64,000 nucleotides of DNA, taken from positions 7,609,506 through 7,673,505 of the forward strand of contig CAJINV010000001.1 of the NCBI GenBank assembly GCA_905178155.1, in the 5' to 3' direction. The notes under the pieces are model-generated. The model ran no database searches. It saw nothing but the letters and a program-made list of their open reading frames with translations, and was not told the DNA's origin. This DNA comes from Amoebophrya sp. A120 (taxonomy: Eukaryota; Protista; Dinoflagellata). Position numbers and translations under genes: made by a program. Of the stretch, positions 3,345 through 59,393 are shown in pieces (positions within the stretch are counted from its first letter, which is position 1; each line of letters opens with the position of its first letter).

Positions 3345-4723
3345 ATGGCTGACGGAAACGTGAAACTGAAGTCCAGCCAGGGCGACGTCTTCGTCGTCGA
3401 GCGGGAGGTTGTATCAAATGCAAAAATGTCTGGGTCTGGAAGCTTGTGATGCTCAAAGTGAATGGTAGACGGACTGCAATACGCAGCTATGCATGACAAA
3501 TTTTTTGGCTCTCATGTCTTACGTATTCCGCATGACAAACTGCGTTTTTGCATGACAGATAAGAGGGCCTTTTCGTGCCTATGCAACACAGATTCTCGAG
3601 TCATGCCAGACACGCATGACAAACCTGCATTCTTCCAGACCCAGACATTTTTACACTTGATAGGTTGCGGTTATGTCCAACCTGCTGAAGAACATGATTG
3701 ACGACTGCGCCCCGGATGAGGAAATCCCGCTCCCGAACGTCAAGTCCACGATCTTGCAGAAGGTATCACTGGTTGCGGCTAATGCGTGCTTTTTTTGCAT
3801 GATAGTACAGTATGTAAATTGCATGATGCGCCGCATCGTTGCCAGTGCACACATTTTACTGCAAAGACTACATCGTGAAGCGAAATACATAAAGTAAAAG
3901 TCGAAAATATGCGCTTTTCTATACAGGTGATCGACTACTGCAAGCACCACCGGGACTATGGAGAGAAAAAAGTTTGTCACAGTCACTAACTTGCAGGCTT
4001 TGCATTACAAATTTTCTCAGCATCACAAACTTTCCTTGTATTGCAGAAACACTAGGGAAATACCTAATGAAGTTTGGCTGTGATGCATTTTTACGCATGA
4101 CAAACAATTTAGTATTGCAAAAATGCGCATGAGTGATCGTGACGAACTTTTTTTCTTTGATAGGGACGAGTCTCCGGAGGAGATCCAGAAGCCGTTGAAG
4201 TCGCACATTTTGACGGAGTGCGGCGTGTTATCAATTGCAAAAATGTCTGGGTCTGGGAGATGGCGAGATTTGTCATGCTTGTCTGGCATCACTCTGAACT
4301 CTGTGTTGCATGGCCGTGAAGAGCTCTTCCTCCCTGTCATGCAAAAACGCAGTTTCTCATGCGGAGTACGCAACTCAGAGCCATGGAAAAAACTTGTCAT
4401 GCTTGGCAGCGCATTATAGTCAGTTCACTATTCCCTTTCTTGCATCACAAGTTTCCAGACCCAGACATTTTTGCAGTTGATACGTGTCGGAGTGGGACAA
4501 CAACTTTGTGACGATCGAGCAGGAGGTGCTGTTCGAGCTCATTTTGGCGGCCAACTACATGGACATCAAGTGTCTGCTGGACCTCACCTGCGCCAAGGTC
4601 GCGTCTATGATCAAGGGAAAGACCCCGGAAGAGATTCGTCAGCAGTTCAACATCGCCAACGATTTCACGCCGGAGGAGGAAGCCCAGGTCCGGGAAGAAA
4701 ACAAATGGTGTGAGGACGCGTAA
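3345..4723 (+). CDS. SKP1: S-phase kinase-associated protein 1 (SCF adaptor), 5 exons
   Basis: Exons 3345-3411, 3668-3762, 3927-3956, 4168-4228 and 4488-4723 total 489 nt and read [119 protein letters not shown]. One GT-AG intron (3763-3926) and three TIR elements. Confidence 0.97.
3412..3662. mobile_element. TIR introner/MITE, family A (251 bp), TSD GGTTG
   Basis: TATCAAATGCAAAAATGTCTGGGTCTGGAAG...CTTCCAGACCCAGACATTTTTACACTTGATA. GGTTG at 3407-3411 and 3663-3667. Removal restores SKP1 EVAVMS. Confidence 0.95.
3957..4162. mobile_element. TIR introner/MITE, family E (206 bp), TSD GGGAC
   Basis: TATGGAGAGAAAAAAGTTTGTCAC...GTGACGAACTTTTTTTCTTTGATA (imperfect TIR). GGGAC at 3952-3956 and 4163-4167. 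Removal restores KHHRDESPEE. Confidence 0.9.
4229..4482. mobile_element. TIR introner/MITE, family A, opposite orientation to 3412 (254 bp), TSD CGTGT
   Basis: Family A TIRs. CGTGT at 4224-4228 and 4483-4487. Removal restores [11 protein letters not shown]. Confidence 0.95.
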
Positions 4724-5963
4724 GCAGTATTTCGTCGTCTCGTCGCGGCATCACGACTAGCGGATTTGGATTTAATCAAGAATATTGGACGAGCAAGATG
4801 TTCGTTGTACTACTACCGACGAGGAAAACGTCGCAGGTGATCGTCGATGTTTAGTCCCGCCGTTGTTGTGAAAATTGATGACTAGTGGTGTCAAATTTCG
4901 CAAGCAGGGAGGCACTAGAAAAGCATCTAGATGATCTTCTATCTTGTTTTCAAAAAGAGCTTTATTACTTCACCGAGTTGATTGTACCCACTAGCGATTG
5001 TCAATCTCGTATTTCGAGAGACTACAGCAATTCCATTTTCCCGGATGGTCTTGCCAGAGAACTTCTTTCCACAGCGACCGCGACCCATGATCTCTTGTCC
5101 TACGAGAAGCGCAATTCCCGCCTCTACTCACTTCCCAAAAAACGATCTTCATCAAGCGACCGCACTACGCTACCATGGGAAGCTGCGTTTATCAATGACG
5201 ATATGCTAATCAAGTATCTATAAATTTACGTTGGGTCTCACTCGACAGCACGATGCCAGAGAATGCTTCGACGACATGTTAGCGGGAGTCCGCGTTCTAC
5301 AGCGCTGTTGTGGTGTTCGACATGTTACTGACTAGTACTCGCACGAAGTCGTGATCGTTTCAGTAAAGTTCTGGACTTGATTTCGTTCGTTTATCGCTGT
5401 CGTAGAGAGAAATCGGGAATGCGAGGCATGATACCCCCTTTCGAGACATGTACAAATTGCATAGAGTGTTTAAAACCGAGTGAAACGATAAAGCATATAT
5501 CGGAGTTTCGAACCAGAACTGTCTATCGCGAACATCGTGTTGGAGTTTATCAGAGAGACGGAAAAGTTCGTGACGTACTACTTGCATCTCGCTTCGGAAA
5601 AATGGTACTAGAAATAGATACGAAGCATTCGCTAGTAGGTTCGTTTTGTCCGTGTCGAGTATTGAAGCAGAAGCTCCTTGACCACCACTTGGCGGATTTT
5701 GTGCGAAAAAAATGACGTCCGCGTCTACCCGGAGCGCGACGAGGAGCCATAAGAGCAGCATCAACGCTGCCAGGCAGTTGCTCGCCGACGCAGGTATCTA
5801 AGGACCTTTCCTAATTTTCGGTTGTACACGAGGCAGTGCCTGTGCCTCATAAGCATTGTTTGTGGGGTAGAGGTCCTTTCCTTGGTCGTCTATGATTTTG
5901 ATTCAAATCAGAGGACAACTTCGCTGACAAATCCTCACTTCACAGAAGCAGCATTCAACCCGC

Positions 5964-56588: not shown

Positions 56589-59393
56589 ATGAAGCGCCCA
56601 CCGCCACACTCACGGCCGCCGCGAGTGCGGCGGCAGCCGCAGGACCCGAATCCAGACGACTTCTGTATCTTTTGCTGTCCCGCGTCACCAGGGCGCCCAG
56701 GACCCCAGCGCAGCAGCGGGTCGAAAGAAACTTCTGCGTCCTCTGCGTGCGGCTGCTCTGCGCCAAGTTTCTTCTGCGCCTGTGCCTCAACGGTAATGCT
56801 GCTGCAGGATCATTTCCTAGGCTCTCGTTCCGGAGCGGGCGGCCACTTGCTACACACTCAAGCCATGGCGCACGCCCAGCCAGTGCGCGATTCCGAACAA
56901 GATAGACGAAAGTCAACATCCAGCACGGCGCTCGCCGCGCCGACGGAGACGTTATTTACAGGATCGAAAGAGGAAGTAGACGATGGGAACAAGATCGTCC
57001 CAGCCGAGAAAAAGCGGGACCCGAGCAGGGACCCAGCAAAACCGACCGAGCCAGACGAGGGAAGAAGCCATAAGGAGCAAGCGAACGCCCACAAGGGAGC
57101 GGTGAACGAGCACCAGAATAAAGGGCGAACTTTTATAGAGCATGAAGAAGGGGGCACCACGACCTACGAAAAGCGAGGCACTTTGCGTCACGCCACGGAA
57201 CAAAATGCGGTAAAGCCGCTCTCTTCAGCACCGGTGGACAGTACTAGAGGCTCGTCACGCGCAGGAGAAGCCACGAAGAAGATCATGAGGACCGCGGAAC
57301 GACAAGGAGAGCCATTGTAATCAAAAACGATACTACCTTTGGCGTTAAAGTGCAGCGAGCTATCGAAAGTAGCTTCAACCGATATCTCGTAGAGTCGGGA
57401 CGGAGCTTCGATGTGATAGAGGTGTCAACCTTTACAGGTGGCGAGGATGGTGTCTCTTCAGCTGCGTCAAATGCAACCGAGGACGCTGATAGCGGCGGCG
57501 CGAGGCTATCCTCTTCCCTGATACGGAAAGAGGAAGGTGGTCATGCTATCAACACGAATAAACGAGTGCAACAAGAAGGAGCACACACGAACTCCCTGGG
57601 TTCGCAGGTACGTAACCACAAACAAATGACGGCGCTTCATCTGGATTTGACAGAACAACAGCAGCAGCAACTTCGCAACACGCAAAGAATTGAACAGGCC
57701 ATGGATGGTACCACTACAGCAATTGACCGCCTGTCAGTATTGGGCGGAAAAGTCGCGTCCGCAGACGAGGAGGGCGGGAACCCCTTCAACTTTTCCGCGT
57801 ACTTCCTCGGCGCCATGCCGACGGCTGGCACCGAGGCAGCCAACAAGTTCCAGAATAACACAGAGCTGGATGAGATCATCACGAAGGCCATACAGAGGCA
57901 CATTCTGAAGAAGTACCATAACGCGACCAAGAATACGACGACCTTGCGCTTGGACGGAATTTCCGTCCAACTGCGGCGCGAAGTTACTTTTCTCGGTATC
58001 GCGGATGCCAAGGCCGCTGCTGGTGACGCGGATTCGCCGGCAGCGTCCTCGCTCCTTTTCGTCCAAGACCGGGAGCATCAGCAACAATTGGGCGCGCTGA
58101 TGAGCGCAGAGCTTCGACAAGGAACTTGACCTGGAGATGGCAACTTTTTTGGCCGCAGCCCGCAGGTCCAAGCTGCACCTGTCACCAACGTTCCAGCTGT
58201 TTCACGCCCGGAAGATGGAGAAAATCCTCATCGCCAAGCAGCGCAGGCGATTTGCCGAGGAAAACCGGAAAAGAGAGGCATGGCGGCGCGCCCTGGTGGT
58301 GGAAAGCATGCGGAAGATGAAGAAGAAACAGCAGCTTCCGTCGGCGGGGGAGAATAACAATAAAGGTCTTCAAAAATATGCTGCGAAGACAGGGACTGGG
58401 GCGCAAGGGGGTGACCGAGCAGTTTCATCCGGCGTAGAAGCAAGTGCGGAGACAAAACCAACAGAAAAATTGATCACGCCGCGTTTCTCGTTCTTGGCCC
58501 TCCTCGAAAGACGCAGCCAGACCCCACTGAAAAAGGAAGCAGCAGAAAAAAACGCAACAAAAAGCGGCCCGCCGTTCACTCTTTGGTGCGACTTGCAGCC
58601 CTTCGCGCTGGAGGAAATCGACAGCTGGATCAATCTATCAAATGTAAAAATGTCTGGGTCTGGAACAATGCAACTTGTGATGCTAAATCTGAAGCATGCA
58701 AAAATCTGTGTTGCATGATTACCAAAAGTCGTCCAGTTTTGACCAAGTCGGGAGTCAGTTTCTCACGCAGGATAGGCATGAGAAAGATCGCGCAAAATCT
58801 GTCATGCTAGGGCCTGCATTCCAGACCTCATGGGTCATTAAAAAGCTGCACGACAAATCGCGCATTCTTCCAGACCCAGACATTTTTACATTTGATACAA
58901 TCCGTGTCTTGTGTTATTTGAGTACCCTGGTAGTATCGGGTTTGTGGGTCTCATCATTTCTTTCGTTATCACTTGTCTGATCGTCTGCCGCCACTACCTT
59001 TTGTGCAGACAGCGCAAGCGCCCCGTGGACCCAGCTCTGGCTCTGCTGGAGGGCGTCGGACATGAAGACGCGCTTCTGGCGGGAGAATCGGCCGCTGCTG
59101 ACCCCGCGGGTGCGCTGAAAAAGAAGCAGAAGAAGAGCAAGAAAATGGAAAAGGAAAAGGCGGAGTCGAAAGTTGCGGGCATGAAATTGGGCATGATCAC
59201 GGGAGGTGGGTCGTACACTGTGCAGCGTTCTCCAGCACTGCCCGGCGGGGGCGGAAGGCAGCCCGCAAACAAGGCACTCTCCGCAGCAGCTAGCGGTGCC
59301 TTTGCAGGGGCAAGTGCGGGTTTTGGCGCAGCTGTATCCGGCTCTGCTGCGTTTGGAGCGCCGAAAGCTACCCGTGGCTTCGGAAAGTACTAG
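56589..59393 (+). CDS. Hypothetical multi-exon single-pass membrane protein (start approximate)
   Basis: Chain of + ORFs (56589, 57350, 58137, 58911). The last two join in frame after removing 58636-58902 (DSWINPCLVLFEYPG). TM segment IGFVGLIISFVITCLIV. Confidence 0.6.
58636..58897. mobile_element. TIR introner/MITE, family A (262 bp), TSD CAATC
   Basis: Family A TIRs. CAATC at 58631-58635 and 58898-58902. Confidence 0.95.

Follow-up and report, generated by a model that had tools for sequence, protein, structure and literature searches.

The coding exons of a 64,000-nucleotide stretch of the Amoebophrya sp. A120 genome (contig CAJINV010000001.1; hereafter the window) are interrupted by non-coding, multi-copy, transposon-like introners, and these are removed exactly, at the RNA level and without need of GT-AG boundaries. 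The window was searched for elements whose ends are complementary at no fewer than 17 of 24 positions and which are flanked by a 5-bp direct repeat, with 12 first-order Markov shuffles as the control. By these strict criteria the window contains 15 elements, and each of the shuffles yielded none. All 15 lie in coding exons of six genes, every one on the + strand: SKP1, an EF-hand protein gene, a gene without Pfam match, a GT34-like glycosyltransferase, a GH27 alpha-galactosidase, and a second gene without Pfam match. An earlier account made from the letters of the window (the sequence-only reading) had listed 14 elements of 206–321 bp with their places and 5-bp repeats. All of them were recovered, 13 with perfect repeats and one with an imperfect repeat (GTGGC/ATGGC). 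That account overlooked a 15th element at 20170–21087, which is 918 bp long, TTA-ended and flanked by AGGGT, and it gave the element at 10224 an ATA end where the actual right end is ATG. Its statement that no element is intergenic holds for intact copies, but half an element (60750–60863) lies in a stretch without an open reading frame of 120 codons, an apparently non-coding context. This half element adjoins a 196-bp repeat (60559–60754), which is also nested within an intact element at locus L026 of a second assembly described below.

The elements have the features of miniature inverted-repeat transposable elements (MITEs): they are short and non-coding, have inverted ends and a target duplication of fixed length, and occur in many copies. 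The first 24 end positions are complementary at 18–24 positions in every element, the 5-bp direct repeat is present in all 15 with one imperfect, and pairing of the termini is predicted throughout, with mean pair probabilities of 0.53–1.0 over positions 11–28. The sequence-only reading had linked them to introner elements reported from Amoebophrya, and they match the A120 introners of Farhat et al. 2021 (PMC7789003), described there with inverted ends of TAT, seven bases and an A run, direct repeats of 3–5 bases and a mean length of ~240; we see no difference in kind. The corresponding motif (TAT, seven variable bases, at least three A) is present at the left end of 12 of the 14 TAT elements and at either end of 13. 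In the element at 9536 the A run starts two bases later, and the 918-bp element is of the TTA type, resembling the ends described from strain A25. The 3.7 kb of the 14 TAT elements hold 64 occurrences of a motif of another kind, TGTNWTGC, against 15 in the remaining 59 kb of the window, a ~70-fold higher density. Each TAT element carries three to six copies in either orientation. The motif is common to families with different ends, is absent from the 918-bp element, and could be a site for a transposase or a splicing factor. An Rfam search of the window gave no matches, and the end motif had no match in the viral contigs searched.

Retention of the elements would destroy the proteins. The length of element plus one repeat is indivisible by three in 10 of the 14 TAT elements, as the sequence-only reading had counted, and an in-frame stop follows retention of any of the 15. 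Deletion of each element with one repeat gives open frames in all six genes, four of which then match Pfam families (Skp1, EF-hand, alpha-galactosidase, and GT34 below its curated cut-off). The spliced SKP1 has 162 amino acids; 140 of them are identical in the protein of Amoebophrya A25, the alignment running through every junction without a gap, and the best named single-domain match of its exon is also from A25 (91%). Sliding the junction through the repeat can reach GT-AG at one of the 14 TAT elements, the one flanked by GGTTG at 3412.

Transcript evidence came from seven mapped runs (X1, X3–X6, X9 and X10) out of 12 listed, with junctions read from contigs. Mapping covered positions 3300–23299 and, for X3–X6, 17300–24700. 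Runs X3–X6 belong to one study with two samples, and their RNA status was inferred from the skipping of GT-AG introns. X9 is a poly(A) metatranscriptome from a different strain, one that carries substitutions, so it is no independent proof of removal. X1 is a DNA-like run in which unique sequence is evenly covered ~43-fold. The raw-read run X10 placed 58 reads, none of which crossed a junction.

At eight of the 14 TAT elements and at the 918-bp one, contigs skipped exactly the element plus one repeat, and the same contigs also skipped GT-AG introns. The joints include those proposed earlier for SKP1 (211 bases) and GH27 (258 bases). The SKP1 gene (3345–4723, + strand; poly(A) reads end at ~5251–5254) holds three elements and one GT-AG intron. 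The first element, at 3412–3662 (251 bp, repeat GGTTG), and the third, at 4229–4482 (254 bp, CGTGT), belong to the main family with GTCTGG-type ends, and between them lies a 206-bp element at 3957–4162 (GGGAC). The X4 and X9 contigs skip 256, 211 and 259 bases at these sites along with the normal 164-base intron. The element at 3412 is oriented opposite to those at 4229 and 9913, and the opposite copies at 3412 and 4229 are both skipped.

Between 17300 and 24700, runs X3–X6 contained 13 joints, comprising seven GT-AG introns, five elements and one joint with a short side, which lies within an element. This last joint, from 23680 to 23829, came from one run with a 25-base side, and we took it for an artefact caused by a paralog. 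The GT34-like gene (17300–21102, 5' end approximate, + strand) has three elements and five GT-AG introns, all skipped within single contigs. Its main-family elements lie at 18003–18266 (264 bp, repeat GTGGC/ATGGC), with a 269-base joint from 17998 to 18268, and at 18324–18585 (262 bp, CGCGT), with a skip of 267 bases. The 918-bp element (TTAAG...TTTAA, AGGGT) sits in the last exon and gives a skip of 923 bases; each of the three skips occurred in three of the four runs. In the GH27 gene (22763–25089, + strand, two elements and one GT-AG intron), the main-family elements at 23617–23869 (253 bp, CTCCT, a repeat without G) and 23925–24187 (263 bp, CGATG) were skipped as 258 and 268 bases in all four runs. 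The normal introns between 3763 and 23556 are 109–164 bp long; among nine with RNA support, seven start with GTAY and only two have G at position +5.

The remaining elements are distributed over three genes. The EF-hand gene carries a 316-bp element at 7115–7430 (TTGAA), skipped as 321 bases in X9 only, whose strain might not have this element. Five elements interrupt the first gene without Pfam match: 9536–9787 (252 bp, GTTGG), 9913–10164 (252 bp, AGGAC, main family), 10224–10474 (251 bp, TCTTG, main family), 11169–11452 (284 bp, AAGCC) and 11501–11821 (321 bp, TCGGA). The second gene without Pfam match contains a main-family element at 58636–58897 (262 bp, CAATC, again without G), which is 94.7% identical to that at 18324–18585.

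The joints could in principle reflect excision from DNA in the transcribing life stage, as with the internal eliminated sequences of ciliates. Transposon ends and exact target restoration would suit transposase chemistry, and the DNA and RNA runs come from unmatched stages. However, in X1 the joined form had a depth of 0 at all three SKP1 sites, where contigs ran from exon into element (contigs drop rare forms, and joints were partly counted), and element-exon junctions stood at single-copy depth in this one DNA run. The same elements also flank exons in the second assembly. We consider DNA-level excision very improbable.

The joints might also be made in the test tube. A hairpin combined with a short direct repeat is a known signature of reverse-transcriptase artefacts. 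Both are present here and all of the RNA evidence is cDNA, so reverse transcriptase might have jumped across the hairpin between the direct repeats of messages that keep the elements, in which case the genes would be dead or read by ribosome hopping. We give this explanation very little credence. All 15 elements would introduce stops if retained, including those in SKP1, whose spliced product is conserved without gaps. In the second assembly, removal of an element also restores the frame of the gene for the largest subunit of RNA polymerase. Ribosome hopping is further opposed by three amino-acid-changing mismatches (at L001, L012 and L022) within the codon that hopping must match. On the evidence set against these alternatives we rejected pseudogenes, cryptic GT-AG sites and ribosome hopping.

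To place the window elements in a larger population, we scanned metagenome contigs with the end motif and listed at least 155 loci (L001–L155), all from one assembly, out of an estimated ~530 stretches. The census counts below cover these loci. From 302 first candidates, non-overlapping copies with TAT or TAC ends were kept, copies being called by sequence alone. This left 286 distinct copies with a median length of 262 bp, 253 with perfect 5-bp repeats and 33 with one mismatch. All 14 TAT elements of the window have near-full-length relatives among these loci, with best identities of 87–96%, and reads also showed the elements with other flanks. No relative of the 918-bp element was found among the loci; near-copies of it are present in reads. 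The element families of the window also occur at L001 and L151, whose exons match A120 proteins at 100% and 94% identity, respectively. At L075 (4024–4995), a 972-bp element with ~700 bp of captured DNA splits the RNA polymerase largest-subunit gene mentioned above. Elements with captured DNA were also seen at L025, L048, L049 and L078.

A coding model oriented 207 of the copies. When checked on the window, it gave the right strand and frame in 13/13 confident cases and left two of the 15 elements uncalled. Among 181 oriented perfect repeats, no position departed significantly from the coding background (p from 0.11 to 0.73), and G at repeat position 1 was not enriched (59/181). Relative to the gene, 69 copies lay in one orientation and 51 in the other among 120 assigned. 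Positions 1–3 were nearly invariant at both ends of 113 copies, with no asymmetry in conservation between the 5' and 3' ends.

Insertions favoured one codon phase. The first base of the repeat fell on codon positions 1, 2 and 3 in 48, 59 and 100 of the 207 copies (p = 2e-5), and in 29, 27 and 48 when one copy was taken per locus (p = 0.02). The phase effect remained significant after adjustment for 13 positions (p = 0.0017), and the bases given phase were not significant (p = 0.25). The 15 window elements are without such a bias (3, 7 and 5). The favoured copies would be phase-0 introns if the cut fell after base 1 or base 4 of the repeat. We looked for a target-site preference behind the bias, and no single base or purine/pyrimidine step stood out. 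For other introners, Roy et al. ascribe such a phase bias to splice bases recruited out of the target (bioRxiv 2020.10.14.339549); a bias without a target motif is a misfit with this proto-splice-site explanation.

Perfect repeats conceal where the cut falls, and unequal repeats, as in 33 of the 286 copies, expose it. At the 18003 element (GTGGC/ATGGC), the joint from 17998 to 18268 retains the left G, which puts the cut one base or more into the repeat. The two L001 repeats are unequal at position 2, where the left base encodes Val, in agreement with the A120 protein and similar to the Ile of A25, and the right base encodes Phe. This comparison favours a cut two or more bases in, although GT-AG can be read at that site in the one-base register. 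For L151 the A120 protein is partial and stops ahead of the site, and no ortholog of L073 was found. If the cut followed base 4, every one of the 14 TAT elements would present a donor of the form N-TA-Y. This resembles the GTAY of seven of the nine host donors and makes the element end a possible mimic of a donor. The earlier idea of excision independent of splice-site sequence thus holds in that no GT-AG is needed, but its signal independence may be overstated, as the element end may itself be the donor.

We infer, with about an even chance of being right, that a relaxed spliceosome cuts the elements from pre-mRNA by reading their ends instead of GT-AG. The inverted ends would pair and draw the two exon ends together, and the cuts would fall one base before the TAT of the element and four bases after its ATA. 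The element would supply donor positions +2 to +4 (TAY), akin to the host GTAY donors, and the G at +1 and the final AG would go unchecked. Such a signal would work in either orientation because both ends bear the same sequence. Of 89 spliceosomal proteins A120 retains 83, including those of U1, and it has U2, U4, U5 and U6 (PMC7789003), which we count in favour of a relaxed spliceosome.

Several points weigh against a relaxed spliceosome cutting in this register. U1 RNA was not detected in A120 or A25 (PMC7789003). No acceptor signal was found with the cut after base 4, and the 918-bp element is removed even though its donor would read TTTAAG. GT-AG boundaries are possible in 12 of the 181 oriented repeats against 7.0 expected by chance, a borderline excess (p = 0.051). 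The register rests on two sites, of which L001 is indirect and permits cuts after base 2, 3, 4 or 5, and the A120 copy of that site may carry a perfect repeat or no element. The RNA evidence consists of contigs from runs inferred to be RNA, from one study (X3–X6). In addition, 16 of 26 oriented repeat mismatches are silent, above the prediction for one free copy (p = 0.003–0.07 depending on assumptions), which could mean a variable cut. The pattern looks as if coding constraint acted on both copies of the repeat. The nine commonest A120 boundaries in Table S4 of Farhat et al. all have T at position 2 (PMC7789003), but the aligner may have chosen this placement and we do not take it as support.

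An alternative is a dedicated RNA endonuclease and ligase outside the spliceosome, which would recognise the terminal hairpin or the TAT/ATA ends, make staggered cuts and join the exons, as suggested for euglenids (PMC11282704, PMC12501133). The absence of an acceptor motif and of base bias in the repeat, the occurrence of both orientations, and the removal of TAT and TTA elements, two unrelated end types, from one transcript all fit such an enzyme, as does the failure to find U1 (PMC7789003). The introns of euglenids are excised as circles, and the motif at their boundaries is set off by a spacer of 3 bases on the 5' side and 5–6 bases on the 3' side. On the other hand, the element end matches the core of the host's own donors and no candidate enzyme was seen. 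Moreover, end positions 4, 5 and 7 pair in 66, 65 and 39 of the 113 copies, where independent ends would give 67, 70 and 40 (calculated by hand), and thus a perfect terminal helix is not kept. We regard the endonuclease and ligase as possible but clearly less probable than the relaxed spliceosome.

Spliceosomal removal in a mirror register is improbable. The cut would fall one base into the left repeat and the intron would end in T-A-N, mimicking a YAG whose last base is free, like the introns of Fritillaria; alternatively, the cut would be variable, which the excess of silent mismatches would fit. The mirror register agrees with the RNA at 18003, with A at position -2 in 14/15 elements, and with the commonest annotated repeat position of Farhat et al., four bases upstream of the 5' end (PMC7789003), although reads cannot place annotated positions inside perfect repeats. 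At L001, however, it gives Phe against the Val of A120 and the Ile of A25, despite reading GT-AG there, and it is opposed by the lack of G enrichment at repeat position 1.

The origin of the elements would involve a transposase supplied in trans that inserts them with a 5-bp duplication. The autonomous, transposase-bearing copy proposed for search by the sequence-only reading did not turn up among the long copies. In the 0.41 Mb searched, the seven copies longer than 360 bp were short elements with inserted DNA; six frames from four of them and one from the 918-bp element gave no transposase match, and the longest open frame of the 918-bp element has no Pfam match. Farhat et al. likewise report no transposase in A120 (PMC7789003). 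Among 40 of the 58 A120 entries of Gozashti 2025 (PMC12130899), the best candidate relative of the mobilising enzyme, and the nearest lead, is family 38, which is listed as Ginger and has a length of ~810 bp, TA/TA ends, a 5-bp duplication and integrase-like frames. It shares the duplication length and end dinucleotides of the window elements. No integrase-like frame was found in the long copies examined here. The A120 introner families of that study are terminal-inverted-repeat elements of 250–320 bp with ~30-bp ends and mostly non-canonical sites, like those of the window. The window end motif had no match in the 12 of its 14 supplementary files that were searched.

The phenomenon itself is already known, since Farhat et al. 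2021 described the element class, the missing GT-AG, a hairpin model and the missing U1. They found >60% of introns to be non-canonical, counted 29,850 repeated introns in A120 with RNA-supported removal, and did not fix the position of the border (PMC7789003). Added here are the narrowing of the border by two unequal repeats, a repeat without splice-like bias, and removal in both orientations. Another Amoebophrya has GT-AG introns and U1 (PMC12005148), and the part of PMC13326754 consulted does not mention Amoebophrya. The literature searched, with subscription papers outside its scope, yielded no resolution of the removal mechanism in Amoebophrya.

Similar elements are known in other eukaryotes. 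The nonconventional introns of euglenids are MITE-like, with paired ends, direct repeats at the junctions and no GT-AG, and stand beside normal introns (PMC11282704, PMC12501133). By inspection, the window ends (TAT...ATA) differ from the euglenid signature N3-CDG...CHG-N5-6 followed by a purine (PMC12501133). Fritillaria borealis, whose genome has a changed U2 spliceosome, also removes MITE-derived introns, but those introns prefer the ends AG-AC and AG-AT, while the boundary bases in the window come from a sequence-random repeat (PMC11282704). The introners of Aureococcus and Polarella are also terminal-inverted-repeat transposons turned into introns, some in both orientations. They survive only with a G-containing donor and an AG acceptor drawn from the repeat or the element, whereas no such filter is visible here, although the phase bias remains (bioRxiv 2020.10.14.339549). 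A U2-type pair, with a GT or GC donor and an AG acceptor, is available to 1/14 elements in the window and 12/181 in the second assembly.

Elsewhere, the window has no intact element from 24187 to 58636. Within this interval, 26952–51113 holds long + strand frames without Pfam match, one of them with 1689 codons (42303–47372), and 52329–55478 is an element-free amino acid transporter gene (PF01490). DNA depth far above single copy at 13300–14200 indicates another repeat there, which is not a TAT element.

For a eukaryote to clear its transcripts of tens of thousands of introns with random boundary bases, either the spliceosome must be able to forgo its most conserved checks, the G at +1 and the AG, or there must be another splicing chemistry in the nucleus, and both options bear on how transposons turn into introns. 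The gain made here is that unequal target repeats offer a cheap readout of the cut position, which was unset in Farhat et al. 2021. It is possible, though we hold it less probable than not, that Amoebophrya has a second, non-spliceosomal nuclear splicing system that measures from the paired ends of any transposon and always cuts with the same stagger, one base before and four after. If so, transposons of unrelated end types could land harmlessly, in either orientation and in any exon sequence, and unequal target repeats would map the cut sites of the system genome-wide from existing data.

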